A DNA stretch of 64,000 nucleotides from sequence record NZ_CP128202.1; one strand, given 5' to 3'. This document shows, piece after piece, positions 12,653 through 50,114 of the stretch. Positions within the stretch are counted from its first letter, which is position 1; each line of letters starts with the position of its first letter. This stretch comes from a plasmid. A program made the position numbers and the translations under genes. The notes beneath the pieces are model-generated. The model made no database searches, was not told the DNA's origin, and saw nothing but the letters and a program-made list of their open reading frames with translations.

Positions 12653-12867
12653 TTCACAATAGCCAGCAGCCGGACTGCTGGCTTAACACTATTCGGCGAT
12701 ACACTGCGCTTTGACAAAGAGCTTCATTTAATCTGCAATAAGCGTCGTCACTTCAGTTTTAACCGAATTGGCGATAAAACAATTCTCATGAGCCATGTGG
12801 TGCATTTTTTCTAATTGAGATCGTGTCGGTTGATTATCACCAGCAAATGTTATCTTAGAGTTTAGTA

Positions 12868-18437: not shown

Positions 18438-19295
18438 TCAGGCCTTGTTCTGACCCAGCAATTCCTGCGCTTGAGGCTGAGTCATCGTAATGTGCAGATC
18501 ACGTTGCGGGAACGGAATGGTCATACCCGCTTCCTCAATCTTACCTTTCACCTGACGCTGAATGCTCCAGTAGGTTTCCCAGTATTTATCCGTGGTACAC
18601 CAGGCGCGTAGTTGCAGATTCACTGAGCTGTCCGCCAGCATCTGAACCATCACCTGCGGTTTCGGATCCAGCATGACTGCTTCATGGCTGAGCGCTAAAT
18701 CCTGAAGCACTTTCAGGCCGGTTTCAATTGAATCCTCGTAAGAGATACCTACCACGATTTCCATACGACGACGGCCGTTACGGCTGAAGTTACGAATGGT
18801 TGCGTTCCAGACGGTGCGATTCGGGCTGGAAATATACAGGCCGTCACCGGTTTCAAATACTGAGGTGAACAAACCAATATCTTTTACCGTACCGCTGTAA
18901 CCGGCAAACTCAACGAATTCACCTTTTTTTATCGGTTTCAGGAACAAAATCATAATCCCCGCAGCAATATTGCTCAGGGTATCTTTTAATGCCAGGCCAA
19001 TCGCCAAACCGGCCGCACCGACTAAGGCAACCAAACTGGTGGTATTGACACCAAACAGGTCGAGAATAATGACCAGAGCGAGAATGTAGACAATATAACC
19101 ACCGACTTTAGACATCAGAGACGCGACAATCTCATCACCATTGCTCACTTTCATAATGGCTTTCTGAATACCGGCACGCATCAGTTTTGATGCGATAGAA
19201 GCAATCACTAAAATAAGCAGGGTTAAAATTGAGTTCTGGATGATATCCAGAATCAACGCCTGATGTGTCTCGTAAAAGCTGACGAGTAACTCCAT
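18438..19295 (-). CDS. MscS-family small-conductance mechanosensitive channel
   Basis: 285 aa with three N-terminal TM helices followed by an MscS beta-domain-like region. Confidence 0.8.
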   Translation of the reverse strand: MELLVSFYETHQALILDIIQNSILTLLILVIASIASKLMRAGIQKAIMKVSNGDEIVASLMSKVGGYIVYILALVIILDLFGVNTTSLVALVGAAGLAIGLALKDTLSNIAAGIMILFLKPIKKGEFVEFAGYSGTVKDIGLFTSVFETGDGLYISSPNRTVWNATIRNFSRNGRRRMEIVVGISYEDSIETGLKVLQDLALSHEAVMLDPKPQVMVQMLADSSVNLQLRAWCTTDKYWETYWSIQRQVKGKIEEAGMTIPFPQRDLHITMTQPQAQELLGQNKA

Positions 19296-22457: not shown

Positions 22458-23056
22458 TGAAGTGTCCAGTCTGGCTGGAGCAGATCATCATTGGTGTTAC
22501 CACTCAGTGCTTGCATGTAAACAGGAATACCTGCTTGGTTTTCACAGATGAGTTCAAGCACGACTTGGTTAAGCTCTGGCCTATGATCCCGACTATAACC
22601 TCTTACAAGCTTAATCACGTTGGTGTTTTCATCTTGTGCATACTCACCATCAACGTGGAAGCTAGTGATATCAAGATGAACAGAATCGGTCGTCAAGCCC
22701 AGTTTATCAACAACACGCTCAGCAATAACCTGATAGAGCGCTGAGACATCGGCTTCGTATAGAGCATCTAATGTGCGGCCTAGTACATCATCAGTCAGGT
22801 GGTGTGCTTCAATGTCTTTGGCGAGTAGCTTAGATACAGGCTTGGTCTTAAAAAAGTCCGAGAACATGTGCAGTGTTCTGCTATGAAAGCCAAGTCCATT
22901 TAGGAGCATGGCCAATACCGCGTCACCATGAGAAACATTGTGGTCAGAATATTTTGGGATAACGGCATCTATCATCCGTGGCAGGCCAATTTCGTGACAA
23001 AAGGCGGCAATGAGACCAAGGTGATCTAAGCGTTTAATAACAGGATGGGTAGACAT
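22454..23056 (-). pseudogene. DUF4277-type (IS1634/IS4-like) transposase N-terminal fragment, truncated by the IS3 insertion
   Basis: The 200-aa ORF has its last about 10 codons encoded by the IS3 terminus. The N-terminus is nearly identical to the fragment at 14464..14825. Confidence 0.6.
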
Positions 23057-24122: not shown

Positions 24123-27100
24123 GGGTTCTAGGGATTTTCCCCTCTAAAAAGACATAATCCTCTGTAGACCACACCAATAAATGGCTGCGGAGGTGGTTTA
24201 CTTTCAGCTTGGAGCCTAATCATCCACTATCGGCCTTGTTATTTCGCCAATATTGGGCAATTTCCCAGTATTAGTGAAGTTATACGTTCCGCTTAAGTTG
24301 ATATTTTGCCACGCAACGGGCGAAACAGCACGAGTGATACCCGCTTTCTCTTCATCTCCTCTCGCTTCAAAGTGTCCCAGAAGATGACTCAGTATCGCGG
24401 AGTTGAAGTAGATGATCGCGTTGGCAAGCAATCTTGCGCATTCATTCCAGATAGCGATTTCAGACTCGTTTTTGCCACGGAACTGATCACCATTCACCGA
24501 CGCAATGGCTCGTCTAAGGAAGTGCCATGCTTCTCCCCGGTTCAGGGCACGTTGCACATACTGCCGCAAACTGGCATCGTCGATGTAGTCAAGTAAATAT
24601 TGCGCTTTAACCAGTCGATTATACTCCGTCAGAGCCTGTAATATTGGGTGTCCAGAAGGGTAACCAGACAACTTTCTTACCAGCATTGCTTGTGTCGTCC
24701 GCTTTGTCTGAAGTGACAGAACAATACGCCTGATATCTTGCCATCCCGTTGTAATAACATTCGTTCTGATAGGCTTCTTTAGCGCCAGTATGGTGCTGCC
24801 TTGTTCACTTTCAGTCACATCAAACAGATCATTGATGACACTACTGAACTGCGCGTATCGCGGTGCAAAACTGTAACCGCATAGATCCAGTAAGGCGAAG
24901 TTAACATGATTGACACCGTGTGTATCTGTCGAGAGTACGTCAGGTTTGATTTCACTGCTGTTGGATTGTAACAGGTCATAAATATAGTGTGATTCGTGCT
25001 CGTTGGAACCGATGATCCGAGCATTGAGGGCGCTGTGGTTGGCCACCAGTGTCATGGCCGTGATCCCTTTGTTGGTGCCGAAATACTTAGAGGAGTACCG
25101 GGTTTTAAAGGTTTCCAGATGGGTTTCGAATTTCTGACCATCCGCACTGGCATGCAGCTGGTCCTCCTGAATATGGTAGTGGCGGAAGATGGGTAGCGCT
25201 GCAACCGCATTATTGATCACGTCGCTGGCGTCATGCAGCGTTTCAGGCCGGATATAGTTGGCCTGCACCGTACTCAGGTGTTCATAGCTTCGATCGGAGA
25301 TCTGCGCCATGCCATACACACCACGGTGAGTGGCGTTGGCAATCAGAATGGCCAGTAAATCATCCTGATGAGTGAACCCTTGTTTTTGTATCGGAAGTAC
25401 ATGAGTCAGACATTTCATGAACCCGGTTTCGCGCTCTACATACCGCAGTACATCCGCGATACCGACCGGTTGCATTCGCTTAAAAAAGGGATTGTTGACC
25501 AGAGATGTAGCGCTTTTGGTCGGCAGACGCCAGCGGGTACCGGTACGATTTTTCATGATCACATTTCGATTGTCTCCCTCATCAATATGGAGAGCAACGT
25601 CTTTGAGTGCACTTTCCAGCCGGTGTTGTTTCTCCTGTAACAATAACTCTGCGGGCTGTTTTAGTCTGTCCAGTGTTGATGAGGCCAGCAAGGTATCCTG
25701 CGATGTCTGGGGATCAGGTCGTCTTCCAGTGCGCGGTATTTGGTAACATTTGGCAAATAAATGCGTCCATTCAGTCGTGAGGTTAACTGCCGGTAGAGCA
25801 GCCATTCGTAACGTTGCGGGTTAACGTTATCCTGTTTAACCAACCATGGGAGGTGCTTTTTCGGGATGAGCGACGTATCCATCGTCTTCAGTGGTCCACC
25901 GAATGCGATTTCCGTCTGCATCTGTTGAAGTTGGGCGACGACGGCTTCTGAGCCTTTACCGGCCTCACATTCAAGGCACAAGAACACCTGCCTTAACAGT
26001 TGCTCCAGGAGATTGCATTGTTCATCGTAATGTTGCCACTGGTACTCTTCCACGGTCCGTTTCTGTTTTTTCAGGTAAAGGCAGAGGGTCTGGATATCCC
26101 TGTCATTCATGACCTTCAATGCCTGTTGTCTGACTACTGAGAAGGGCTGATTGTCATCAATATTCTCGTCAACAAACAGGTGAAGTAGCTCTGCCGCTTT
26201 CGTGACATTGTCCGCAGCTGACTGCCAGGACAGGAACACTGCTTGTTGTGCAAAGGCGTTGGCGGCTTCCTGTTGTTTTCGGATATGGTAAACAAACCCA
26301 TCCGTCAGGCGCTCCAGTGCAAGTTGCATGCGCTCTGTCAGATGACACAGTAACCACAGGTGCTGCTGTGAGCGTTTGAAGCGCCGCACTTTACTGCCGT
26401 AGTAATCAATAAGGCCGCTGAAGTGTTGTCGATTTTTTAGCGACAGATTGAGCCTGTCCACAACGTCATTTATTTGCGTGTGCCATGGTGCTAACCGGTG
26501 GTAAATGGCGAGCTCTTTTTTAAGCTCAGGCACGGTCAGACTTTTGGCACCACCCCTGAGATGGCTCAGACTCAGCCCGTCGTCTTTAGTAGTGATTATG
26601 TTGTCCAGAAAGACGTTAAGTTCATTACTGGTAAGTTGATTCAGTTGGAGCGTCAGGTCTTTTCTGACCTGTTGCATTGTGCGGCTTATCAGTCTTTGAA
26701 GCACGGAGTACTTAGGAATGGCAATGTTATGGCTGGCAAGGTATTCAATGGCCGCATCAAAGAGGTGTCGAGGCTCCAGCCAGGCATGACCAATGTAAAC
26801 CAGGTGGTGGCACAGAGCATTGAGGTGCTGTTTTTCATTCCACTTATTGTAATTTAGTAGACGCAGTATCCTTGAGTAAATACGGTCACGCTGCATTTTA
26901 CTGACACTGAAAGGCCTGATCCCTTTACCTCTTTGAATTTGGGAGGCAATAAACTGCATGTCGATACTGATATCACGGAAACTCGGAGCAATGATCACTG
27001 GCTTAGATTTAAAATAGCCCAGAAGCGCCACGAAATAACAACGATGTTTAGTAAGCCTGATAGTACGGCATTCGGCCTGTTCTACATCGTTTAGCGAAAA

Positions 27101-27348: not shown

Positions 27349-28215
27349 ATGACCACACGTGAAATCGTCGCAACGTTCAAGGAAATGTATGATGCTGATG
27401 TCTCACCAACGCTGATATCGAAAGTAACCGACTCGGTGCTTGAGCAAGTGATTGAATGGCAGTCGCGACCTCTCGACGAAATTTACCCTATCGTTTATCT
27501 CGATTGCATCGTGGTTAAGGTGCGTCAAGACAAGCAAGTCATCAACAAAGCGGTCTATCTTGCGTTAGGCGTCAACATGGAAGGCCAAAAAGAACTGCTC
27601 GGTATGTGGCTCTCTGAAACAGAAGGTGCCAAGTTCTGGCTTAACGTGCTGACTGAACTTCAAAACCGTGGGGTAAAAGACATCCTTATCGCTTGCGTTG
27701 ACGGACTAAAAGGCTTTCCTGACGCCATCAACACTGCGTTCCCAGAGACGCAAATACAGCTCTGTATCGTCCACATGGTGCGAAACTCGGTCAAGTACGT
27801 CCCTTGGAAAGACTATAAAGCGGTGACGACTGACCTGAAGAAAATCTACCAATCAGCCACAGAAGATGAGGCTCTGCTGGCTCTAGCGCAGTTCTCTGAC
27901 CGATGGGATAGTAAGTATCCTCAAATCAGTCGCTCTTGGACGGCGCATTGGGACAACCTCAACCCCCTGTTTAACTACCCAGAGGATATTCGCCGAGCCA
28001 TTTACACGACTAACGCCATTGAATCCCTCAACAGCGTTATTAGAAAAGCGATTAAGAAGCGCAAGCTCTTCCCAACGGATGAATCAGCTAGAAAGGTGAT
28101 CTACCTGGCTATCCGAGATGCTTCCAAGAAATGGACGATGCCGATCAGAAACTGGCGACAAGCTCTAAACCGCTTTATGATTATGTTCGAAGACCGACTC
28201 ACTCAATACATGTAA
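27349..28215 (+). pseudogene. IS256-family transposase, C-terminal part
   Basis: MTTREIVATFKEMY...DGLKGF...CIVHMVRNS are mutator-family motifs. It continues the N-terminal fragment across the Tn3-family insertion. Confidence 0.7.
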
Positions 28216-35767: not shown

Positions 35768-36928
35768 TTAATTTTGCTTTTCTAGCACTACCGGTTCGTA
35801 CACTGCTTCTTCTACCGCTTGGTTTTCTGTTTCACCAAGATCGAAGCTGAAATCGTCATCGCTGAACGCGAAGTCTGATTCTGGCTCTTCACTGGTTTCA
35901 ATCGCCGTCTGTTCAGCCGAGAGAACCGCATCACTGGTCACAGTGGTTTGGTCATCAATGGTTGAATCCCCAAGATCGAAGCTGAAATCATCATCGTTGA
36001 ACGCGAAGTCTGATTCTGGCTCTTTCATTGGTTCCAACGGTCCCGCATTCTGAGGTTCGGATTGAACGCTCGCCATTGCAGGTTGATTGGTTGATGCTTC
36101 TTGCAGACTCTTCATGAGAGTGAGCAATTTTTCCTTATTTGCCATACGAAACAGTAATCCAGACAGGATGTTGGTTTCGTCAGTGGACAGCTTACCCGCA
36201 ATCGGCATTTGCTCTTCGACCTTTTTGATTTCCTGAACAAGTCGAGAAAATCGGCCATTGAGAAACGCTAACCCTTCCACCTTTTCTCGCAATCCGACTA
36301 GGCCGTTTACGTTGGTGCGGTTGGGTGCAATCGCGTCTGTTAAGCTGGATAAAAGCTTATTCGCAGTTTTCAAAATGTCGTCATCAAGAGAATTGCTTAA
36401 ACCATCGATCTCTTTGCCCATGCTGATGTCCACAGACTGAACCGCAGCTTGAGCCGATTGCACTTTGAACATTGAGTAGCTTGCTGAGATTTTGCTTTTG
36501 ACTTCTTGTGCCGGTGTTAATGCGGCGCGAAGTTTTTGCTCATACTCAGGATACTTTTTAACCCATTCATCTTGGATTAAATCGTGTCGAGAACAATACG
36601 CGTCAGCTTCTTTTTCGTAGTCATGAACAATTTTGCTCAATCCTAACGCCAAAGCATCGGCCTTGGAGGACGGTATCGCATAGCCACCCATAAATCGGAT
36701 GCCTACACTCAGACACAAACGCTCCGCTTGACGTTTCAGGGTATTAAATACCTTGAGGTCTTTGGGGTCAGTTGTGTATTTCGAACCTAAAGAGATGATC
36801 TCTTTCGGCGGGGTTTCCCCACGAAGAGATAAGTCGCTTTCTGCCAACTTTTTCCGACCTGTCCAGGTTGAAAAACGTAAGTGAACGGCGACGACATCGT
36901 TTAGAACGTTGATGTTTGAATTGCTCAT
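35768..36928 (-). CDS. DUF3150-like protein with two C-terminal acidic repeats
   Basis: The N-terminus (VHLRFSTWTGRKKL...SLGSKYTTDPKDLKVF...GIRFMGGYAIP) resembles DUF3150 proteins of ICEs. The C-terminus carries the motif EPESDFAF[NS]DDDFSFDLG twice. Confidence 0.5.
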   Translation of the reverse strand: MSNSNINVLNDVVAVHLRFSTWTGRKKLAESDLSLRGETPPKEIISLGSKYTTDPKDLKVFNTLKRQAERLCLSVGIRFMGGYAIPSSKADALALGLSKIVHDYEKEADAYCSRHDLIQDEWVKKYPEYEQKLRAALTPAQEVKSKISASYSMFKVQSAQAAVQSVDISMGKEIDGLSNSLDDDILKTANKLLSSLTDAIAPNRTNVNGLVGLREKVEGLAFLNGRFSRLVQEIKKVEEQMPIAGKLSTDETNILSGLLFRMANKEKLLTLMKSLQEASTNQPAMASVQSEPQNAGPLEPMKEPESDFAFNDDDFSFDLGDSTIDDQTTVTSDAVLSAEQTAIETSEEPESDFAFSDDDFSFDLGETENQAVEEAVYEPVVLEKQN

Positions 36929-36973
36929 AATGGTATCTCCAATTTTTGATATAAAAAAAAGGACATACCATTA

Positions 36974-37005
36974 CCCGCTAGGGCAAATGATATGCCCTAT
37001 GGCGG
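36974..37005 (-). repeat. Related palindrome (X-type hairpin only) upstream of the DUF3150-like gene
   Basis: cccgctagggca...tgccctatggcgg. Confidence 0.4.
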
Positions 37006-37055
37006 TGTAGAAATGTAGATAAGTCGCGCTAAACGCTAGGACTTATCTTTCTTTT

Positions 37056-37199: not shown

Positions 37200-37445
37200 T
37201 TACTCTTGTTTTAACTTTTTCGCAAAAACAGTGAATACAATACCTGACACGATTAGAGCGGCCATCTTCACATCGATACCCGTTTGGATCGCATAGACGT
37301 AGGAGCCAGTGTAACCAGCTATGCCTAAATTCCCCACATGAGTACCAATTTCCTTCCGATGGCAAATTATCCAACCTGAACATTTCTTGATTTGTGCAAC
37401 AAACCAAAGATAGGCAATCACATAATCGAACATGTATAACTCCAT
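37200..37445 (-). CDS. small membrane protein (81 aa)
   Basis: Two hydrophobic helices. The start codon sits inside an 8-bp inverted repeat ctccataa/ttatggag. Confidence 0.3.
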   Translation of the reverse strand: MELYMFDYVIAYLWFVAQIKKCSGWIICHRKEIGTHVGNLGIAGYTGSYVYAIQTGIDVKMAALIVSGIVFTVFAKKLKQE

Positions 37446-37464
37446 AAATTATTATGGAGTACCT

Positions 37465-37494
37465 ACCCACACGGGATAGATACCCCGCGTGGGT
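37465..37494 (-). repeat. Related palindrome (X-type hairpin only) between the AAA gene and the small membrane gene
   Basis: acccacacggg...ccccgcgtgggt. Confidence 0.4.
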
Positions 37495-37503
37495 TAAAGC
37501 TGC

Positions 37504-38457
37504 TTAGTTGTTGTTAAAATCAGCACCAAACAACGCTACAGCTAATGTTTGAATAGTTTCACGTTCTTCTTCTTCCGAGCAGCGGTTTAACAATGCACGA
37601 TCAAGCGCGTAGCTTAATGCATTGTTTGCTCCTTGGAATCGTTGAGTGAGTATCGCCCAACGAATTAACGTGCGAGTTGAAAAGGTGATCGATAATTCTG
37701 AGTCACCTTGCTCCCCTTTGAAGATAGCGCGAACCTTATTAGCCAGCTCAATCATCTTCTTACGCAGCACTTTAGGAATGTTCGGTGCCAGTTTTTCCAG
37801 TACCGCCATTTCCGTATCTTCGCTGGCGTAATCTTCTTTGATCACCACAAAGCGGTCCATGAACGCCATGTTTAGGCGGTTCACTCCCATGTAGTTGCCG
37901 TCACCACCAGATCCGTTTGAGTTCGATGTTGCAATCAAACGAAATGCGGGGTGAGGTCGTACAATTTCGCCGTTAAGCTGAGTGATCACGAGTGGCGCAC
38001 CTTCCAAAATGGCATTCAGGTTTGCCAATTCCGCCGGATCAACCAAGTCGATCTCGTTCAGAATCAGTACATGCCCTCCGCGCATCGCAGTCGTCAGTAC
38101 GCCATCCATCCAGACAGTATTGCCGTTCACTAATGTGTATTGGCCCACTAAGTCCATGTACTCAGTCGAACCGCCACATGTATAGCTTTGGGCTGGATAA
38201 TTTAATCTGGCTAGTACCTGCTCAACCGCTGACGTTTTACCGCAGCCGGTTGGACCGGTGATCATCAAGCCATCGCCAAATGAGCAATCCAAAAACGCCA
38301 CGATGTCGCGTAACGTTTCCCGACGAAAGATGTAGTCTTTCTTGGCCGGAATATTTGGATGTCCACTTGGTGCAAAACCTTCAACCGTAACGTTTGTGCC
38401 AGGAAAACCGAACACATCCATTGGGTAGCTTTGCGGAGTTAGAGTTAGAGTAGTCAT
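37504..38457 (-). CDS. AAA_5-type ATPase (CobS/MoxR/NorQ-like)
   Basis: Walker A GPTGCGKTS, Walker B VLILNEID, and sensor regions. Confidence 0.8.
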   Translation of the reverse strand: MTTLTLTPQSYPMDVFGFPGTNVTVEGFAPSGHPNIPAKKDYIFRRETLRDIVAFLDCSFGDGLMITGPTGCGKTSAVEQVLARLNYPAQSYTCGGSTEYMDLVGQYTLVNGNTVWMDGVLTTAMRGGHVLILNEIDLVDPAELANLNAILEGAPLVITQLNGEIVRPHPAFRLIATSNSNGSGGDGNYMGVNRLNMAFMDRFVVIKEDYASEDTEMAVLEKLAPNIPKVLRKKMIELANKVRAIFKGEQGDSELSITFSTRTLIRWAILTQRFQGANNALSYALDRALLNRCSEEEERETIQTLAVALFGADFNNN

Positions 38458-38479
38458 AATGTTGTCCTTAATTAATCAA

Positions 38480-38512
38480 TAAAAAAGGCAACTTACGACT
38501 CCCCTAGTGGGC
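38480..38512 (-). repeat. Bipartite hairpin element, left half; the right half lies at 39757-39778, split by the ISAs1 insertion
   Basis: Joining the two flanks across the TSD gives aaaaaaggcaact..cccctagtgggcagc..agttgcc..gcccgataggg, again with four arms. Confidence 0.45.
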
Positions 38513-39746
38513 AAGGGCGGGATCGAACTTTAACCACTGAAAATAAAAGACTTTATTTTATTGGGAACTTTTCAAGGTAATCACGATCTGATCATGAAGT
38601 TAAAAATATGAGAAACTCGTGCATGATTATCATTGAGCAGCTAAAAAAAGTGAAAGATACCCGTTCGCATATCAACCAAGTGTATCCTGTTATGGAAGTG
38701 GCTTTCTTGGTCATAACCGCCATGATTTGTGGTCAAAATAAGTGGACTGATATTAAGGATTTCGGCGAAGGAAATATCGAGTGGTTGCGTGAGTATCTCC
38801 CCTACGACAATGGTCTCCCCACTCGGCATAATATTGCCGCGATAATGAGAACTGTTGTACCAGAGACGCTCTTGGAAGCGATGGTAGGCTGGGTCAATTT
38901 GCACAGAGAAAAGCATGCTCAGCCCATAATCAGCGTTGATGGGAAGGTTCTAAAAGGAGCGAAAGCAAGCAAACAAGAACACCCTCTCTATATGGTTTCG
39001 GCATTTGACGTAGATGAAGGTTTGACTCTCACACATCAACCTTGTGACGGTAAAGGTATGGAGCTAATAGCGATAAAAAACATGCTCGACGCTTTGGATG
39101 TCAGAGGGTGCTTATTAACTGCTGATGCGCTTCATTGTCAGGTTGAAACACTGAATAAAGTGGTTGATAAAGGTGGTGATTTCTTAGTGCAAGTCAAACT
39201 GAATCAGCCAAGTTTGTTAGCAGAGATTGATGCGCAGTTCCAAGACTATTGGGCTTTGCCAGAAGAACAACAGGAATCGTATATCACTGAAGATAAAGGG
39301 CATGGAAGAGAAGAGATTCGTGAGGTTTACGTGCTTCCTGCCTCCTTCAGCGAAGAACTCAAAGATAAGTGGAGTGTTGTAAAAAGCATTGTTGCGGTGG
39401 TAAGAGATAGAAGCGTCAAAGGGAAAGGAAGCTATGAAACATCGTACTACATTTGCACAGACCATTTGTCTTTAGAGTTAGCCTCAAACGCAACAAGGAA
39501 ACACTGGAACATCGAGAACCAGCAGCACTGGGCTTTGGACGTTATTTTCAAAGAAGACGAGCAGCGAATTTACGCTGGGGACTCAGCATTGAATATGGCT
39601 TGTTGTCACCGATTTGTGCAGAACCTCTTCAGGAAGTCAGAAGGGAGCGTGTCTGTACCAAGGAAGATGAATAAGGCTACGTGGGACAAAGATTATAGAG
39701 CAAAAGTTCTCTTTACATCAGCTTAACAAAGTACGTTCGCGCCCTT
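38513..39746 (+). mobile_element. ISAs1-family insertion sequence with 10-bp target-site duplication
   Basis: Ends are AAGGGCGGGATCGAAC... and ...reverse complement AAGGGCGCGAACG. It is flanked by CCTAGTGGGC at 38503-38512 and 39747-39756. Confidence 0.7.
38608..39726 (+). CDS. ISAs1-family (H-repeat-associated) transposase
   Basis: 372 aa with DDE_Tnp_ISAs1-like motifs (VISVDGKVLKGA...LLTADALHCQ...HWNIENQQHWALDV). Confidence 0.85.
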   Translation: MRNSCMIIIEQLKKVKDTRSHINQVYPVMEVAFLVITAMICGQNKWTDIKDFGEGNIEWLREYLPYDNGLPTRHNIAAIMRTVVPETLLEAMVGWVNLHREKHAQPIISVDGKVLKGAKASKQEHPLYMVSAFDVDEGLTLTHQPCDGKGMELIAIKNMLDALDVRGCLLTADALHCQVETLNKVVDKGGDFLVQVKLNQPSLLAEIDAQFQDYWALPEEQQESYITEDKGHGREEIREVYVLPASFSEELKDKWSVVKSIVAVVRDRSVKGKGSYETSYYICTDHLSLELASNATRKHWNIENQQHWALDVIFKEDEQRIYAGDSALNMACCHRFVQNLFRKSEGSVSVPRKMNKATWDKDYRAKVLFTSA

Positions 39747-39823
39747 CCTAGTGGGCAGCTTTCAGTTGCCCGATAGGGTTGATATTCATTGAATTAGTCA
39801 ATCGCTCGACTAATTCCCTCTTC

Positions 39824-41056
39824 TTAAAAATGCATGTTTCGTACAGATTTTTCGAAGAAATTACTTGGTGACGTTGGGGTAGCGATCATTGGAATGACCT
39901 TGGCGGTTTCTGTCGGCTCAGGCTCAGTTTTCGGTTGAGTCTCTTCCGGCATTAACGCGCTTGGCGATTTCACCGTCATCACGTTTAACGATTCGGCTTG
40001 CACCGGTTCCGTTGAGTGTTCAGGTTGAACGTTCGCATTGTCGCTGGTTTGAACAGTCGGTGTGATGGTTTCTGGCTCATCAGTTACATTGACTAAGTAG
40101 TAAGACGACCCTTTCTTCGTGTGCTTAGCTAGTAACTCTGGTGGTATCGCCACATTGAGATCCTTCGCCAGCTCATTAAGAACCGCTTGGTAGTCCACAC
40201 TGCCATTTCGTTCCACTCGCGTAGCCCGAATACCACCTTTATCGAATGTTTTGACATCACTAGGGATTTGCTCAGTGAAGTAACTTTCAAGCTGATTCAC
40301 ATCGGCCTTGACCGCATTCATTTTGCGTTCAATCTCACCTAGATACGCTTTTTTCTCTTTCAGTTGCTCCACTCGGCTTAGCCAGGTTGGATCAACTTGA
40401 GAAAGTGGCGTGTCGTACACAACGGTATCGCGGCCTTCCATCATTGGCGGTGGCGTCTTAGTTTGCACCAAGTTCCAGAACCACAATGCTTTTTGTTCCG
40501 CTTTTTGGATAAACGCATCGTCACGTTTAATGTTTACCGCAATTGAACGTTTACCGCGCAAGTAAAAAAACAAACGACCTTGAGGGCTTCCGGCGCAGTT
40601 AAGTTGCCACTGCACTTGGGCAGCGTACATCTTGAACGTTGGCGCTTTGGATTGAAGTTCAACAAGTTCGTTGTAGATCTTTTCACAAGGACATTTGATT
40701 TCGAGCACTTCCCGAATGCCTTTAGAGATGGCTTGTAGGCCATCCAAAGACGCTTTGAACAGTGGATTATGGTCTGCTTCTACGCACACTGGCATATACA
40801 CAATGCCGTATTGATCTTCCACGGCGCTTCGCGCTTCCGGCTCTTGCTCGACACCACGTTGAACGTGAAAGTTTTTAGACAGGTCATCTGGTTGTTTATA
40901 ACCGACTAACTCTGCCCACAGTCCGTATGGGGTTTGATAAGGTGACAGGCCCATAATCACAGGGATCATGGAGGCTGTAATGCCCGTTTTCCGCCACGCA
41001 AACCATTTTTCACTACGTTGTACTAAGTCAACAATAGGCATAAGTGCCTCCTTCAT
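39824..41056 (-). CDS. YqaJ / lambda-Exo-type (PD-(D/E)XK) recombination exonuclease with C-terminal extension
   Basis: The N-terminal 200 aa carry WFAWRKTGITASMIP...GLW...EIKCP, which are YqaJ viral recombinase motifs. The C-terminal about 200 aa are unassigned. Confidence 0.7.
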   Translation of the reverse strand: MKEALMPIVDLVQRSEKWFAWRKTGITASMIPVIMGLSPYQTPYGLWAELVGYKQPDDLSKNFHVQRGVEQEPEARSAVEDQYGIVYMPVCVEADHNPLFKASLDGLQAISKGIREVLEIKCPCEKIYNELVELQSKAPTFKMYAAQVQWQLNCAGSPQGRLFFYLRGKRSIAVNIKRDDAFIQKAEQKALWFWNLVQTKTPPPMMEGRDTVVYDTPLSQVDPTWLSRVEQLKEKKAYLGEIERKMNAVKADVNQLESYFTEQIPSDVKTFDKGGIRATRVERNGSVDYQAVLNELAKDLNVAIPPELLAKHTKKGSSYYLVNVTDEPETITPTVQTSDNANVQPEHSTEPVQAESLNVMTVKSPSALMPEETQPKTEPEPTETAKVIPMIATPTSPSNFFEKSVRNMHF

Positions 41057-41065
41057 ATTGTGTTC

Positions 41066-41113
41066 AATAAAAAGGGCGCACTATCCCCTACGGGCAGTGT
41101 CGCCCGTTAGGGT
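41066..41113 (-). repeat. Bipartite hairpin element, copy between the 133-aa gene and the exonuclease gene
   Basis: On the + strand: an A-run, then arm gggcgcact, arm cccctacgggc, arm agtgtcgccc, arm gcccgttagggt. This makes two overlapping stems (1:3 and 2:4). Confidence 0.5.
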
Positions 41114-41138
41114 AGATGGATAATTAGGGTACTTTCCT

Positions 41139-47000: not shown

Positions 47001-48432
47001 AGCAAAATTGGCCTTCGTTAAACCCACAGTTGGAAGTCACTTCCACTTTTCGACAAAACGGACTGATGCCTAAACTAGCAAATGGGTTCGATTTGAAATT
47101 AGACTCACAGACTTTCACCCCGTTCATCACCGTACAACCGGCTGCATCAAGGCTTGGCATGTCGGTACACTGAAACGAGCCGGTACAGTAACCGTCATCG
47201 ATCTGTTTTTTTACTTGGAAAGCTTTGTCGATGTTTTCTTGCGTTGTCCAATTGTCACCGTACACGAGATCGTTCATGTTGTAGTACACCAACAAAGAGG
47301 AATAGCCTTCCCCTTCCCCCGCTACAGAGGTGCGAGTTTTAAACGTTATCTCACCATATTCAGGCACACTGGTGAATGAACTGGTGACGTTAATGTTAGG
47401 TCGGGTGTCCCAGGAAGTGCTTAACTCACATTTCGTCCCGACTTCGGGCGGAAATTCACCGTTCGGGCCGTTGTAGATTTTCACCCCGTTCAAATACACT
47501 TGGTGATAATCATCGAACTTCGAGCGATCCAGAACGGCATAAGTAATTTTATCCGGCTTCAACACTTCAACGGACATGCTCTCTTCATAAATCGTACACC
47601 AGCCTGGCCAGTAATTGTTGCCTACTGTGCCGATCCAAACCTGTGTGCAGCCATTTCCGCAAGAAACAAGGTTCACCGGACCGCTTTTATGTCTCAAAAT
47701 GCCGACTTTGTATTCGTGGCTGATGGTAAATGTCTCTTCGACAACCGGTAGTTTTTCGCACGTTTCGTATTTCGGCACATGGTAATCCTTGCCTGACGAA
47801 ATGAGCTCAGTCGTGAGTGTGCAGTTGGCAAAGTCTTTGGTAATGTCGGTGAGGTTGTCGAGTACCTGATCGGTGTTCTTCCACATCGGATCGTTGCTTA
47901 AATCCGGCTTTTGAGTAGCAAAAGACCTCTTCAGTAGATGATAAGCTCGTTCACCGCTTGAATCGGCGGTTTCGAGTGTCTTTTGTTCGTATTTATCTTT
48001 CGCTAACTGGCCTTGGATAAGGGTTTTGGAATCACTGCCATAGGTGTCGGTATCAGCGGGGATGTAATCATTGTCGCGCTGACCCGTGAGCTCCTGTTTC
48101 GTCATAATGGCTTTGCCATTGACCATCAGCGAACCATCTGACGAAAAGGTTGGATTAGAGTGTGCGTTTTTGACAGGTTGTTTAACCTGTGTTTTTTGCA
48201 CGTTTGCATTGGGTTGTTTCGCCAAAACCTTAAAGGTGAAGCGAATCAAGCAGAACGCAAGATAGGCAACCAACGAAACCGTTGCCAGTAGGATAAATGC
48301 TGCCACCATCCGAGCTGGATTCTCTGCTTGGTAAGCAACAAAGGCACCAATAAAACACAAAGCAAAAACCGTGAAGTTTTTGAATGATGTTTTTGGTAGA
48401 AGTGTTGATAGGGTTTGAGTTGAAGTGTTCAT
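44011..48432 (-). CDS. giant Cys-rich exported protein, TraN-like (mating-pair stabilisation)
   Basis: 1473 aa, with about 75 Cys in repeated C-x-C modules and a hydrophobic N-terminus. The C-terminal region resembles F-type TraN tails. Confidence 0.45.
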   Translation of the reverse strand: MNTSTQTLSTLLPKTSFKNFTVFALCFIGAFVAYQAENPARMVAAFILLATVSLVAYLAFCLIRFTFKVLAKQPNANVQKTQVKQPVKNAHSNPTFSSDGSLMVNGKAIMTKQELTGQRDNDYIPADTDTYGSDSKTLIQGQLAKDKYEQKTLETADSSGERAYHLLKRSFATQKPDLSNDPMWKNTDQVLDNLTDITKDFANCTLTTELISSGKDYHVPKYETCEKLPVVEETFTISHEYKVGILRHKSGPVNLVSCGNGCTQVWIGTVGNNYWPGWCTIYEESMSVEVLKPDKITYAVLDRSKFDDYHQVYLNGVKIYNGPNGEFPPEVGTKCELSTSWDTRPNINVTSSFTSVPEYGEITFKTRTSVAGEGEGYSSLLVYYNMNDLVYGDNWTTQENIDKAFQVKKQIDDGYCTGSFQCTDMPSLDAAGCTVMNGVKVCESNFKSNPFASLGISPFCRKVEVTSNCGFNEGQFCSKDLNGVERCFDNDTVDRNQCKKYEENPTCSYIKSECVEGAEGSSGHCYVQEDTYDCGFTASTGQPKEEQVLRCNGKLQCVGENCYSPARDGANEDFGKVNAYLEMLKYAKADMTCQGIPESPYDADAPPDQYIPVPSCADGFVYNKQTNQCLKPTGCTYSDNDFYAASSRNGIQVLVGNQVVVDDASVPTCIPVKKNGVTYTCGEAKKKLATDTFYEVCTNAESPVIPSGCPSPDHTLNPKTGYCEIPPTPTCPEGVPLIEGGDPWSVLDDKCLLDIPAVPKCNNANETYDAATGLCNGITYTDAQCDSGLTLSNGQCVGIKEGCYFDKDAFVISNGEHSGLNTPRTETRVLDGLCHNTYYDFCGDDPATIKPSNAYLGSGAFWRGKQREQWKYYSGSSAGCGRTLNYSSWGPSSNIINRGRGTLSNYNGTGHFAGWCIMTQDWNYTYEICTNVNTTKDPVCAIGSYDSATGKCKAGSVSPPEWVCSEEGTYYNATTGRCIREEPASISCPTSYPIWNAEENRCESSSISPLANVRSQFELNNEPLNPTQTQEVIAMVLSPFEHMLDTLIPKANASSELQGSEEAKLTQETMQQYVAEQFLSMAEEQQNNIALTTVGRQQLMGLASASSTAQPMSMSTMSTSSVTTSSGGDTNVTCELFKGTASECKIAVGGMQNCCESPVAVTLADYISLTTKMMQMDALTGQVMGLENYPGVWETASTWGSATAQSAWSAVQGEFISPADIVAQMGTDGANKGLMSAVAQQMMQYTNQFLIDTFGPEVAKMFFQEVGTSAAGEAVLGASAEMAAAGQALMYVYYAYLAYVVFNLLVNVIYECEEEELDLAMKRELLSTHKIGSYCKTEVLGSCIEKRQSYCVFDSPLSRIMMEQIYAQSQMNLNWGTAKKPNCTGVGIQDLDKVDWDEVNLDEWIGILISTGNYTDMVNVNIDSLTGKGSNLNTQQGGTDRNNVLEANRERMENIDADEVRRDAYEDAWSRSQ

Positions 48433-48450
48433 AATGTGTCTCCATTAGAC

Positions 48451-48499
48451 AAAAAAATGGGACACATTACCCCTACGGGCTTTGTGTCCCGTTTGGGGT
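48451..48499 (-). repeat. Bipartite hairpin element, copy upstream of the TraN-like gene
   Basis: aaaaaaa, then gggacaca, acccctacggg, tgtgtccc, cccgtttggggt. Same four-arm topology as the copy at 41066. Confidence 0.5.
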
Positions 48500-48515
48500 T
48501 TGAATTAATATCGAC

Positions 48516-48632
48516 CTATTTATCTAGATGATACTTTTTGCTGTAGTGCTTGACGACTTGCCATCCGACAATACCAAGTATTGTCACAAAGCCAATACAC
48601 ATACCAAGATAGATTAGTGCGCCAGTAGTCAT
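48516..48632 (-). CDS. candidate small membrane peptide (38 aa)
   Basis: MTTGALIYLGMCIGFVTILGIVGWQVVKHYSKKYHLDK with an aggaga RBS. Confidence 0.3.
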   Translation of the reverse strand: MTTGALIYLGMCIGFVTILGIVGWQVVKHYSKKYHLDK

Positions 48633-48682
48633 ATGATTCTCCTTTTCGATAAGTATAACAAAGTGGCGTTTTTTAAACCAAA

Positions 48683-48916
48683 TTATTCCTCTCCATCGCT
48701 GTTTTGAACCATATCACCTATCACCAAGCCCACATCAATAATCACATAGGCGAGCATAAATGCTATACCGACTGCAATTGTGATGACGTTCATTGGGATA
48801 TTGTCTGCTGTGCTAACTAAGTTGATTCCTCCTGTGACCATTATACCTGCGCCTATTGCTAGGAACACATTGGCAAACGCTCGAAGAAATGCTTTTTTTA
48901 TAATATTCATACGCAT
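48683..48916 (-). CDS. small membrane protein (77 aa)
   Basis: Two TM helices. Confidence 0.4.
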   Translation of the reverse strand: MRMNIIKKAFLRAFANVFLAIGAGIMVTGGINLVSTADNIPMNVITIAVGIAFMLAYVIIDVGLVIGDMVQNSDGEE

Positions 48917-48967
48917 TACCTCATTTGTTATTTTGAATATTTAATAACAGAGATAAACGTATGGCCC

Positions 48968-49000
48968 GTAAGGGATAGTTTATCCCCGTTGGGCTGAACA
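48968..49000 (-). repeat. Related palindrome (X-type hairpin only) upstream of the 77-aa gene
   Basis: gcccgtaagggata...tatccccgttgggc. Confidence 0.4.
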
Positions 49001-49060: not shown

Positions 49061-50114
49061 GGCCTTGTTGCTTAAATCAATGGAACTAAATCAGGAAGCT
49101 ACGATCTGATCGGCTACACCCATCAATCGTCGTAGCCTCATGCCTAAACCTCGTTACAAAACAACTAACTGGAAGCAGTACAATAAATCCTTAATCAACC
49201 GTGGTTCTCTGGCCTTTTGGATTGATGAGGAAGCGATAGCTGAGTGGAAGCAAAACAAACAAGGCAAGCGTGGTAGATCTCGCCGATTCAGCGACTTAGC
49301 CATTACTACCGCACTGATGGTGAAACGCGTTTTCTCTATGCCCTTGAGAGCGCTGCAAGGTTTTCTAGACTCCGTATTTAAGCTGGCTAACATCCCGCTT
49401 GTTTGCCCGCACTACACCTGTATAAGCCGCCGAGCTAAGGAAGTTGAAGTTTCATTTAAAACCAAAACCAGAGGAGCAATACAACATCTGGCCATTGATG
49501 CCACTGGCCTCAAGGTTTATGGCGAAGGTGAATGGAAGGTCAAGAAGCATGGAACTGATGGGAAGCGAAGAGTCTGGCGTAAGCTGCATATCGCGGTAGA
49601 TACAAGCACCCACGAAATAGTCGCAGCAGAGCTGAGCTTATCTAACGTAACTGATGCCGAAGTGCTCCCCAACTTACTCAAGCAAACACGTCGTAAAATC
49701 ATTGAGATATCAGGCGATGGCGCTTATGACACAAGGAATTGCCATGATGCCATACGGATCAAGCGAGCTGTTCCGCTCATCCCGCCAAGAGAAGGAGCAG
49801 CCTTCTGGGAACAAGGGCATCCTCGTAACTTAGCGGTAGGTTGCCAGAAGCTCTATGGCTCCAACAAGAAGTGGAAAAAGCGGTATGGCTATCATAAGCG
49901 CTCTCTATCAGAGACCGCAATGTACCGAGTAAAACAGCTGCTAGGTGGGAAATTAAGCCTGAGGAACTACAACGCTCAAGTTGGCGAGACTTACGCTATG
50001 ATTAAAGCCCTGAATAAGCTTACAGGGCTTGGTATGCCTGAAACACAGTATATCGGTTAAGAATTAAGCACAATGGGGCAGGCATGGCTTATCTATGAAT
50101 TAAGCAACAAAGCC
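49061..50114 (+). mobile_element. IS903-group insertion sequence, copy 2
   Basis: Its left IR is the variant GGCCTTGTTGCTTAAATC. The right IR is the reverse complement of GGCTTTGTTGCTTAATTC. There is no TSD, and the right end overlaps the 3' end of the resolvase gene. Confidence 0.8.
49140..50060 (+). CDS. IS903-like transposase (306 aa)
   Basis: Near-identical to copy 3 (2 aa differences). Confidence 0.9.
   Translation: MPKPRYKTTNWKQYNKSLINRGSLAFWIDEEAIAEWKQNKQGKRGRSRRFSDLAITTALMVKRVFSMPLRALQGFLDSVFKLANIPLVCPHYTCISRRAKEVEVSFKTKTRGAIQHLAIDATGLKVYGEGEWKVKKHGTDGKRRVWRKLHIAVDTSTHEIVAAELSLSNVTDAEVLPNLLKQTRRKIIEISGDGAYDTRNCHDAIRIKRAVPLIPPREGAAFWEQGHPRNLAVGCQKLYGSNKKWKKRYGYHKRSLSETAMYRVKQLLGGKLSLRNYNAQVGETYAMIKALNKLTGLGMPETQYIG

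Follow-up and report, generated by a model that had tools for sequence, protein, structure and literature searches.

The closest systems described so far are translational attenuators of SXT and the IncA/C plasmids. A review (PMC4542580), in its passage on attenuation, reports high transcription of bet and exo in SXT with their translation restrained by a strong attenuator, and it places this strong translational attenuator upstream of bet, in IncA/C as well. For vcrx089, the section of Roy et al. [quoted passage not shown] The element described here shares with these attenuators its gene neighbourhood (AAA ATPase/Vcrx089, ssb-bet-exo and DUF3150), its position directly 5' of a start codon and the proposed mode of action, namely RBS sequestration with high mRNA and low translation. 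The SXT and IncA/C reports, in their passages on attenuation, deal with single sites, whereas the element forms a multi-copy family, and no description of the X/T/S helix architecture, of a chain of CCC/GGG mimics, of a multi-copy family or of its wider spread was found in these parts of the attenuator literature. What appears to be new is the multi-copy family, the three-helix design and the occurrence in IncHI1B, a Pseudomonas megaplasmid, Marinobacter, Salinisphaera and Vibrio plasmids.

Six copies of the element lie in the window, that is, the whole 64-kb stretch of plasmid DNA analysed (NZ_CP128202.1), and the genes flanking all six sites are on the minus strand; each copy would represent a cis-acting leader in an intercistronic gap of a polycistronic minus-strand mRNA. 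On the mRNA-sense strand the 5'-to-3' order of the arms is X5' - T5' - X3' - T3' - R in all six. X5' (blocks a and b) and X3' (blocks c and d) both have the form CCC...GGG, T5' begins in the GGG of X5' and extends into the X loop, T3' is a C-rich anti-Shine-Dalgarno (anti-SD) arm, and R extends from the Shine-Dalgarno sequence (SD) to the AUG of the gene that follows. Three competing helices emerge from the sequence analysis and the predicted folds, X (X5':X3'), S (T3':R) and T (T5':T3'), of which X and S are predicted to be compatible and T to be incompatible with both. Helix S, the complementarity of T3' to the downstream SD and start-codon region as well, was overlooked in the initial annotation. 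The 3' arm of S begins within about 2 nt of the SD and extends to the AUG, the end of the element is 19-51 nt from the start codon, and the apical loops of S are single-stranded and, in the Vibrio copies inspected, AU-rich.

The flagged site, copy A (41039..41115, minus strand), occupies the gap 5' of a YqaJ-type exonuclease gene (Pfam YqaJ), with X5' at 41101-41112, T5' at 41096-41105, X3' at 41085-41096, T3'/anti-SD at 41065-41082 (41074-41082 being the portion that pairs in T), a U-run at 41066-41073, the RBS arm at 41043-41060 and the AUG at 41039-41041. Its covariance-model match reaches 43.1 bits (E = 1.3e-9), and its minimum free energy structure (MFE) of -36 kcal/mol consists of the X hairpin and the S hairpin (z = -7.06). 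Copy B (48430..48500, minus strand), in the gap 5' of traN (Pfam F_T4SS_TraN), comprises X5' 48488-48499, T5' 48483-48490, X3' 48469-48479, T3'/anti-SD 48456-48468, a U-run at 48449-48455, the RBS arm 48433-48446 and AUG 48430-48432; it matches with 44.5 bits (E = 5.4e-10) and folds as X + S at -31.3 kcal/mol (z = -5.33). The first copy of the block, F (48908..48996, minus strand), has an IS5 just upstream and stands 5' of a 77-aa ORF, with X5' 48981-48994, T5' 48978-48987, X3' 48964-48977, T3'/anti-SD 48943-48963, the RBS arm 48908-48932 and a probable AUG at 48908-48910; the match is 27.6 bits (E = 2.9e-5), z is -4.95, and the T stem has 10 bp including G-U. Copy E (37431..37496, minus strand), without a U-run, is also 5' of a 77-aa ORF, for which no Pfam match was obtained, and is made up of X5' 37482-37494, T5' 37477-37486, X3' 37465-37477, T3' 37456-37465, anti-SD 37452-37460, RBS arm 37439-37447 and AUG 37431-37433 (30.9 bits, E = 3.5e-6; MFE -35.1 kcal/mol, z = -6.75; T stem of 10 bp with two G-U pairs). 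In copy D (36926..37006, minus strand), 5' of a DUF3150 gene (Pfam DUF3150), the arms are X5' 36993-37005, T5' 36986-36997, X3' 36975-36985, T3' 36961-36972, anti-SD arm 36954-36974 and RBS arm 36927-36947, with a U-run at 36953-36960 and AUG 36926-36928 (36.4 bits, E = 1e-7; MFE -37.7 kcal/mol, z = -8.33; T stem of 12 bp with two G-U pairs).

Copy C is split by an ISAs1-family insertion sequence (38513..39746, plus strand; annotated in NZ_CP128206) that sits within its X3'. The 5' fragment (39747..39778, minus strand), identified by pattern match, holds X5', T5' and the first half of X3', and the 3' fragment (38455..38512, minus strand) holds the remaining X3', T3'/anti-SD, a U-run, the RBS arm and AUG 38455-38457; the gene that follows encodes an AAA_5/CbbQ_C ATPase, a Vcrx089-like protein (Pfam AAA_5 + CbbQ_C). 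By itself the 3' fragment gives a weak covariance-model match (15.9 bits, E = 0.055). That these are two halves of one copy, as previously reconstructed, is confirmed by the uninterrupted allele in NZ_CP040989 (empty site, L002:5456-5538), which folds as X + S. The insertion has a 10-bp target duplication, CCTAGTGGGC at 38503-38512 and 39747-39756.

All the sites cited earlier are indeed present at the coordinates given, and the strict pattern CCC-N2-6-GGG-N3-18-CCC-N2-6-GGG occurs far above expectation, with 8 strand-hits in the window against 0.25 +/- 0.72 in 200 dinucleotide shuffles. Apart from a chance site at 17162, a looser pattern scan of the window returned the six sites and nothing more, and the covariance model, run over the whole window with filters off, found exactly the five copies that are intact, each on the minus strand (E = 5e-10 to 3e-5), and the ISAs1 remnant; neither pattern scan nor covariance model gave further copies in the rest of the 64-kb window (~51 kb). 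Three sites (36974, 37465 and 48968) formerly taken to carry an X palindrome only turned out to have T arms of 9-12 bp too, and all six copies are full; these arms went unseen on the plus strand because they need G-U pairs, which exist on the minus strand only.

Strand specificity is evident throughout. Plus-strand readings of the window copies score 11-13 bits against the covariance model. When both strands were folded against shuffles, as had been proposed, the minus-strand copies reached z-scores of -4.95 to -8.33 with 0 of 200 shuffles as stable, and the plus-strand folds were weaker in six of six comparisons (z -2.99 to -6.25); pairing of the T arms amounts to -1.8 to -4.0 kcal/mol on the plus strand vs -12 to -16 kcal/mol on the minus strand. 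Over the 67 copies of the family found by covariance model, the sense fold is on average 3 kcal/mol more stable than the antisense fold (48 of 67 copies, p = 6e-6). The suggestion of a structure under selection is upheld, and the relevant molecule is the minus-strand transcript. Exactly two hairpins, X and S, make up the MFE in 63 of 67 copies. In the window copies the MFE pairs SD and AUG with T3', and the probability that the SD is free, P(SD free), has a median of 1.4e-5 and is below 0.1 in every one of 45 copies. The SXT bet copy folds weakly (z = -1.65).

The T state lies at a median of 7.6 kcal/mol above X + S. In a nascent prefix ending at T3', T beats X in 51 of 67 copies by a median of 3.0 kcal/mol, and for copies A, B, C and D it is the MFE of that prefix, at -21 to -22 kcal/mol vs -15 to -19 kcal/mol for X. 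Blocking the outer X5' arm switches many MFEs to T; in 31 of 45 copies P(SD free) then increases by a factor of more than 5, the median reaching only 0.004. The barriers estimated along nested paths are ~19 kcal/mol for X->T, an overestimate with pseudoknotted paths ignored, and ~12 kcal/mol for T->X+S. Because of these high barriers T would rarely be visited spontaneously, and for this reason it might have another role, e.g. as a terminator or 3'-end hairpin. As to the relation of T and X, the proposal of mutually exclusive overlapping stems stands, but a stable pseudoknot is unlikely: the 2-4 nt linker to T3' is too short for the full 10-bp X (a steric argument), and X+T would be expected at most as an intermediate with the inner X helix alone.

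The picture of T arms that covary while X is conserved, first drawn from the window, extends to the family. With segment alignments anchored by per-sequence duplex predictions, which bias the paired percentages for T and S upwards and for which shuffle and slide controls are a partial remedy, 85.5% of cells are paired in the T helix vs 61.2% when partners are shuffled (the observed value is reached in 0 of 500; slid controls 34-51%), and 71.4% in the S helix vs 49.9% in shuffles (0 of 500). T shows 115 cells changed on both sides vs 46 expected and a covariation score of 0.717 vs 0.28, S a covariation score of 0.657 vs 0.26, and X, kept as CCC/GGG blocks, is paired in 79.4% of cells vs 71.1% in shuffles (0 of 500). 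MAFFT alignments (A1, A2) failed to register the helices, and therefore pattern matching with duplex energies, tagged fixed-length segment alignments (A3, A6) and a covariance-model-derived alignment (A5) were used. Cognate T5':T3' duplexes average -14.8 kcal/mol vs -8.9 kcal/mol for non-cognate ones, the cognate partner being the best of 46 in 22 cases; for 23 copies retrieved with a T-blind model, the values are -13.8 vs -8.4 kcal/mol, with a median rank of 2 of 67. Covariation of T is equally good in the IncC, Salinisphaera, Pseudomonas and Marinobacter lineages. Each copy has T and S arms of its own, sequence conservation is confined to the CCC and GGG blocks, most copies having just these triplets in common, and no conserved ligand-binding core was found beyond them.

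The covariance-model search suggested earlier gave 72 matches at E<=0.01, corresponding to 67 distinct copies at ten loci, all on the sense strand of the flanking genes. Their hosts are Vibrio plasmids, IncC, IncHI1B, a Pseudomonas megaplasmid, Marinobacter and Salinisphaera, with nine further copies in an SXT/R391-type ICE and 5-17 copies per element, a breadth drawn mainly from plasmid records plus one SXT-type contig (an AAA ATPase scan of genome contigs gave 4 loci). The element is consequently not specific to the island, as had been supposed: IncC, IncHI1B, SXT/R391 and other elements carry it as well, and in distant hosts the copies accompany the AAA-ATPase/DUF3150/exo gene block. Providencia pPROV252-1 (L010), V. 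fluvialis pIDH5335-2 (L003) and a Desulfovibrio MAG (L006) gave no copies. Directly upstream of bet in the SXT/R391-type ICE, a copy (L015:9938-10003) ends at the bet start codon; in IncC, copies lie upstream of bet (L008:16464-16543) and of the AAA ATPase at the vcrx089 site (L008:13903-13970), the latter orthologous to copy C. The published bet attenuator may well be identical with the element, as position and one sentence of the review suggest. Three IncC copies are near-identical over 43 nt, and two of them have a 121-nt identical block in common. The initial annotation recognised no known REP, attC or riboswitch class, in agreement with Rfam 15, which at gathering score gives no match in the window, L008, L007 or L005 and at E<=5 nothing that overlaps any copy.

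We read the element as a modular cis-acting translational attenuator or switch, with a probability of about 0.72. The control is placed primarily in translation, not transcription, because the output conserved across the family is sequestration of the RBS by T3'; of the attenuator family first envisaged, the translational form is thus retained and the transcriptional one given up as the primary mode. In the ground state X + S, the RBS and start codon would be buried and translation OFF, and in the T state, with X3' folded on itself as the stem tip, the RBS would be single-stranded and translation ON. The invariant CCC/GGG blocks would form a chain of SD/anti-SD mimics (a:d, b:c, b:e, e:SD) that would allow toggling by branch migration. 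Every independently initiated cistron of the accessory, anti-defence-type operon would be silent in translation by default, in accord with the published attenuation of the highly transcribed bet and exo of SXT. Release would come about when X is opened or R is held open. The trigger might be a ribosome that completes the upstream cistron, a latch set by a ribosome once initiation has occurred for the first time, cleavage in the AU-rich S loop, or a trans-acting factor. In the AT-rich Vibrio lineage, T with its U-tract may also act as a partial intrinsic terminator. A more tentative extension, less likely than not, is a self-contained, factor-independent RNA toggle working as translational relay or latch, in which X opening or one initiation would flip a copy to T and give an operon-wide, brief and self-limiting pulse, e.g. 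after host entry.

Several specific triggers were considered. Between the upstream stop codon and X5' the gap is 0 nt for several IncC copies, has a median of about 17 nt and extends to 35 nt or more; since it is broad and differs between orthologues, direct ribosome occlusion is not general, and an occlusion relay, rejected as the general trigger on account of these variable gaps, is kept as one candidate. In 26 of 67 copies, 15 of them among the 17 from IncC, X5' directly follows a stop triplet, and an AA consensus at positions -2 and -1 accounts for part of this. A leader peptide was discarded: a consistent uORF was not found, and the candidate mini-ORFs are without SD and not conserved. 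An internal promoter that truncates X was rejected too, because the P_vcrx087 transcript contains the whole element, its start site, published at pVCR94 65081-65083 (Table S3) and placed here by approximate offset, being ~105 nt upstream of the first IncC copy; the P_vcrx087 region has two AcaCD boxes only. Purely kinetic delayed folding was down-weighted: T is favoured in the nascent prefix, yet X is made earlier and the estimated X->T barrier is high, which makes a purely kinetic window doubtful.

A run of at least five U directly follows T3' in four of the six copies of the window and in 20 of 30 from the Vibrio-lineage loci (window, L002, L004, L007), it precedes any A-run in the copies inspected, which fits a terminator better than a symmetric loop, T is the nascent-prefix MFE for copies A-D, and a simple terminator scan detects incomplete forms at 48473 and 41089. 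These features would suit a transcriptional attenuator in which T with the U-run is an intrinsic terminator and X an antiterminator, setting read-through between cistrons. As an account of the family it nevertheless seems unlikely: such a run is present in only 3 of 17 IncC and 0 of 14 Salinisphaera, Pseudomonas and Marinobacter copies, the lineages that mostly go without it show T covariation just as good, and window copies E and F have none. The 13-19 nt insert enclosed by T is atypical of efficient terminators, X is the first to form in transcription with a high estimated X->T barrier, and the match of T3' to each gene's SD and AUG would be left unexplained. Since the U-tract is largely limited to Vibrio lineages, termination does not appear to be a conserved feature of the family, and the terminator formerly proposed could apply to most Vibrio-lineage copies, at most as a lineage add-on. 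Somewhat less probable still is an intercistronic processing or stability element with RNase E or RNase III sites or 3'-exonuclease barriers, where a cut in the S loop would part the anti-SD from the RBS and activate the downstream cistron, and T would cap the upstream fragment. Such a role agrees with the exposed AU-rich S loops of the Vibrio copies and with the stability of T, which exceeds that of X in 51 of 67 copies after loss of R, and it offers a possible release trigger that requires no upstream ribosome; X, however, is at ~10 bp too short for a typical RNase III site, complementarity of T3' to the RBS is needless for a stabiliser, and processing would complement translational attenuation, not replace it.

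The paired, conserved palindromes of the X arms could also be read at the DNA level, as CCCnnnnGGG operators for an island-encoded dimeric regulator or as Bet/Exo annealing or module-shuffling substrates, for which recombination at the short palindrome-containing repeats rptI-IV, as given in the relevant passage of PMC7498323, and the near-identity of the three IncC copies speak. We regard this as very improbable, as the G-U pairs of T and S become A-C mismatches on the opposite strand and every copy at E<=0.01 is in the sense orientation; covariation of T and S with the gene's own RBS would be pointless for a DNA site, the position 19-51 nt from the start codon, inside operons, is too close for a promoter to fit in after an operator, and the common CCC/GGG triplets are too little for annealing in most copies. 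The protein-binding operator family offered in the initial annotation is contradicted by the same strand asymmetry and RBS covariation. The element also departs from the operators of KorA/KorB-like global plasmid regulators, which are strand-symmetric palindromes situated at promoters. A generic genome-wide REP/BIME- or MITE-like repeat unconnected to genes, the outcome against which that annotation had set its proposal, would account for a short GC-rich imperfect palindrome in intergenic DNA and for little else, and is hardly credible: the remaining ~51 kb of the window holds none, the copies share a single orientation and stand in fixed register to the SD and AUG that follow, T and S arms differ in every copy, terminal repeats and target duplications are absent, and the copies move with the AAA-ATPase/DUF3150/exo block across distant hosts.

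The genes behind the elements include homologues of the IncC hde operon, namely the Vcrx089-type ATPase and the YqaJ exonuclease, and since ISAs1 cuts one module in two, the insertion in copy C has probably altered expression of the anti-restriction ATPase. If every cistron of these operons is masked, the module would give the main multidrug-resistance vectors of Gram-negative pathogens a shared point at which host range is controlled. Should the toggle or pulse prove true, it would constitute a previously unrecognised control layer over plasmid anti-restriction and anti-CRISPR functions, installed in the host-defence-evasion and accessory operons of IncC, IncHI1, SXT/R391 and relatives. The element is an abundant structured motif absent from Rfam 15, and its unusual crossing three-helix design together with the strong natural covariation makes it immediately testable.

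Among other known systems, attC sites are structured imperfect palindromes at each array junction that are able to impede translation of the downstream cassette. The element resembles them as a structured palindrome at multi-gene junctions; unlike attC, it has no R''/L''-L'/R' organisation, would act on sense RNA, not recombining single-stranded DNA, and has arms that covary with the RBS. The annotation of related records contains nothing suggestive of an integron. With intrinsic terminator/antiterminator attenuators, most Vibrio-lineage copies share a GC-rich stem with a U-tract, and the element in general an upstream rival stem that shares the GGG(C) of the terminator 5' arm, but its U-tract is not conserved in the family, its terminator-like 3' arm doubles as anti-SD, and it has no evident sensor (leader peptide, tRNA, ligand aptamer or protein site). 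Leader-peptide attenuation of ermC and cat/cmlA likewise relies on exclusive hairpins, an upstream segment that governs the anti-SD and a default OFF state. The element differs in that no conserved leader ORF or stalling peptide was found, in lying between full-length cistrons and recurring through the operon, and in carrying its anti-anti-SD inside the loop of the first hairpin, so that T crosses X. In the MS2 maturation gene and in hok mRNA, the SD is paired at equilibrium with an upstream complement, and a local alternative hairpin transiently opens the RBS. The same combination of equilibrium SD masking and a competing local hairpin is predicted for the element, whose competing X hairpin is, unlike theirs, transcribed first and faces a high X->T barrier; MS2 and hok each represent a single phage or toxin leader, whereas the element is modular and multi-copy.

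All sites cited in the initial annotation were found in the window, where the strict X-pair pattern gave 8 strand-hits versus 0.25 ± 0.72 in dinucleotide shuffles. Three of them, copy D upstream of the DUF3150 gene and copies E and F upstream of the 77-aa ORFs, had been described as carrying an X-type palindrome only; each proved to have a T stem on the minus strand, GGGCAUAUCAUU/AAUGGUAUGUCC (12 bp) in D, GGGGUAUCUA/UAGGUACUCC (10 bp) in E and GGGGAUAAAC/GUUUAUCUCU (10 bp) in F, invisible on the plus strand because G-U pairs are needed. Every copy has a fifth arm, T3' being complementary also to the Shine-Dalgarno sequence (SD), spacer and start codon of the downstream gene, as in copy B upstream of traN (UAAUGUGUCCCAUU/AAUGGAGACACAUUAUG) and in copy D (AAUGGUAUGUCC/GGAGAUACCAUUAUG). 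As modelled, the element is composed of three helices, X (X5':X3'), T (T5':T3') and S (T3' with the RBS arm), with T incompatible with both X and S. The minimum free energy (MFE) fold of each window copy consists of two adjacent hairpins, X and S, the latter burying the RBS; against shuffled controls the whole element folded with z = −4.95 to −8.33 on the minus strand, and plus-strand folds were weaker in 6/6 window comparisons.

The assignment as a real structured RNA family is strongly supported. In an ungapped count that begins at the leading G of the inner GGG, the base of the T stem in 38/45 copies, the T helix had 85.5% of its cells paired versus 61.2% in partner shuffles (0/500 reached the observed value) and 34–51% in slid controls. 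Both sides had changed in 115 cells versus 46 expected, with a covariation score of 0.717 versus 0.28, which bears out the covariation-like T stems noted early on, and each of positions 4–8 showed five or six pair types. Duplexes of cognate T5' and T3' arms averaged −14.8 kcal/mol versus −8.9 kcal/mol for non-cognate ones, and the same effect was seen in the 23 copies found by a T-blind model (−13.8 versus −8.4 kcal/mol). The S helix, whose 3' arm starts no more than about 2 nt from the SD and extends to the AUG, was paired in 71.4% of cells versus 49.9% in shuffles (0/500), with a score of 0.657 versus 0.26; for the X helix the values were 79.4% and 71.1% (0/500), with covariation at positions on either side of the invariant CCC and GGG blocks. 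It can be rationalized that a chain of SD/anti-SD mimics accounts for the conservation of these blocks without any protein: the 3' end of T3' would be CUCC or CCC because it has to pair with the SD (GGAG), the T5' base GGG(G/C) because it has to mimic the SD, and the X3' inner arm CCC because it has to pair with the T5' base. The X3' outer arm, which would become part of the stem tip when T forms, would be GGG because it has to pair with the inner arm at that stage, and the X5' outer arm CCC because its partner is the X3' outer arm.

The calculations give X plus S as the ground state, with T a median of 7.6 kcal/mol above it, and the median probability of a free SD is ~1e-5. For a nascent transcript ending at T3', T beats X in 51/67 copies (median 3.0 kcal/mol). 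When the outer X5' arm is blocked, many MFE folds switch to T and SD accessibility rises more than 5-fold in 31/45 copies, with a median of only 0.004. Nested-path barriers amount to ~12 kcal/mol for T to X plus S and to ~19 kcal/mol for X to T, the latter figure being too high since the calculation ignores pseudoknotted routes. Overall, the predicted default outcome is OFF, and formation of T would probably require X to be opened or the arm from SD through AUG to be held open. A relay by the upstream ribosome is an attractive trigger for copies in which X5' directly follows the stop codon: ~5 IncC copies have a gap of 0 to the preceding annotated CDS, and a stop triplet occurs at position 0 or −1 in 15/17 IncC copies. 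Gaps outside those IncC copies, typically 10–35 nt and unequal between orthologues, count against a general relay, and no conserved leader ORF was found at the copies. Promoter-dependent truncation of X was rejected because transcripts from the AcaCD promoter P_vcrx087 begin ~105 nt ahead of the first IncC copy (approximate mapping, Table S3, PMC4207636). Other possible triggers are cleavage within the AU-rich loop of S, a latch set by a ribosome and a trans-acting factor.

Related loci were retrieved via the AAA ATPase, and one SXT/R391-type ICE via Bet. Covariance model R1 (45 copies; X pairs and sequence only, no T information) returned 72 hits at E ≤ 0.01, comprising 67 distinct copies across ten loci, all on the sense strand relative to flanking genes: 5 in the window, 4 in NZ_CP040989 beyond those in common with the window, 8 in V. 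halioticoli, 13 in Vibrio sp. JCM 19236, 17 within 15 kb in IncC pSNE1-1924, 5 each in Salinisphaera, Marinobacter pMAD49a and IncHI1B pEC2-4, 4 in Pseudomonas asiatica pMD9A and 1 in pSEA1. In the SXT-type ICE, a separate search found nine copies, all on the sense strand. With filters off, the model yielded five intact copies and the ISAs1 remnant in the window, and nothing else. No Rfam 15 family matched any copy even at E ≤ 5, in line with the earlier view that the element is not recognisable as a REP, attC or riboswitch class. The V. fluvialis plasmid pIDH5335-2 (L003), a close relative in the TraN region, has a 28-nt gap upstream of traN without the element (13055-13084), and the MOBH Providencia plasmid pPROV252-1, with the same gene order ssb-recT-exo-AAA-DUF3150, has no detectable copies despite 60–100-nt gaps; the element is thus not obligatory for the gene block.

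A second repeated intergenic motif occurs in IncC and Salinisphaera: a short hairpin whose loop reads YAGCUGR (GCGA-UAGCUGG-UCGC), and after it ACAAACAGCA or AGCACAGCA, ~25–35 nt upstream of those attenuator copies whose gap to the preceding gene is long. It lies at 12802-12842, 13817-13886, 18652-18721, 22484-22553 and 26898-26967 of the pSNE1-1924 locus (L008) and at 1941, 8718, 12076 and 15416 of the Salinisphaera locus (L005); it had no Rfam match, and none was seen in the window. It probably represents the rptI repeats used by Bet/Exo repair in Roy et al. 2020, whose deletion sizes imply a first-to-second spacing of 1042 bp, compared with 1044 bp here. In IncC, the copies preceding the AAA ATPase and DUF3150 genes have in common an identical 121-nt block including X, T5' and T3' (L008 13826-13946 and 18661-18781), a third copy (27399-27441) has 43 nt of it, and the RBS arms differ slightly (GGAGCGCACC versus GGAGUGCAUC), a pattern suggesting that whole modules were recently duplicated or gene-converted.

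The V. furnissii plasmid pVFBJ05 (NZ_CP128206), whose record contains mobI(A/C), matches the window with 99.3% identity over a 14-kb query. Between 35.7 and 48.9 kb all genes lie on the minus strand, with the sole exception of the ISAs1 transposase gene; they encode a 77-aa ORF, TraN (1473 aa), four closely spaced or overlapping ORFs without Pfam match, a YqaJ-type exonuclease, an AAA_5/CbbQ_C ATPase, a second 77-aa ORF and a DUF3150 protein. AAA_5/CbbQ_C is the domain pair reported for Vcrx089, a member of the IncC 'host defence evasion' (hde) operon vcrx089-090-ssb-bet-exo (PMC7498323). An IS5-family transposase gene (49140-50060, plus strand) lies directly upstream of copy F (48908-48996), the first copy of the block, and probably cuts the operon off from the sequence that originally preceded it; a sigma-70-like match (TTGACC-16-TACCAT, minus strand, 49053 to 49026) is located between the two. 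A 184-nt non-coding stretch (48499-48682, minus strand) from the 77-aa ORF to copy B far exceeds the other stop-to-element gaps in the window, and a perfect 9-bp hairpin, GAATTAGTC-N8-GACTAATTC, is found at 39791-39816, after the stop codon of the YqaJ gene and before copy C. The latter copy, reconstructed in the initial annotation from its ISAs1-split halves, could be confirmed by the uninterrupted allele in NZ_CP040989. ISAs1 (38513-39746) lies inside X3' of copy C, upstream of the Vcrx089-like AAA ATPase gene, with a 10-bp target duplication (38503-38512 and 39747-39756), and what this gene retains of the element is limited to T3', U-run and RBS arm. After the insertion S would still be able to form, X and T would not, and expression of the ATPase is probably shut off or driven by IS-borne signals only.

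The initial annotation had placed the regulation at transcription, with T as a candidate intrinsic terminator. A U-run indeed follows T3' in 4/6 window copies and 20/30 overall in Vibrio lineages, but it is rare or absent in non-Vibrio lineages, where T covaries equally well; termination may therefore be a lineage-specific add-on at most and is probably not the defining function of the element. An attenuator built on alternative structures was the correct part of that proposal, the likely step being translation. Its other suggestion, a protein-binding operator, was rejected, given that hits at E ≤ 0.01 are sense-only, folding favours the sense over the antisense strand by a mean of 3 kcal/mol (48/67 copies, p = 6e-6), and T and S covary; a REP reading was likewise rejected.

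Literature searches returned single-site mentions only, and neither the multi-copy family nor its five-segment architecture or breadth appears to have been described so far. A review (PMC4542580) places a strong translational attenuator upstream of bet in SXT and reports it for IncA/C plasmids as well, and copies lie exactly at this position in both the SXT-type ICE and IncC. Likewise, the vcrx089 RBS is likely sequestered by a structure predicted in Roy et al. 2020 (PMC7498323), and the copy at L008 13903-13970 lies at that site. Since copies sit at the published bet and vcrx089 sites, this kind of translational attenuator is already known from single cases.
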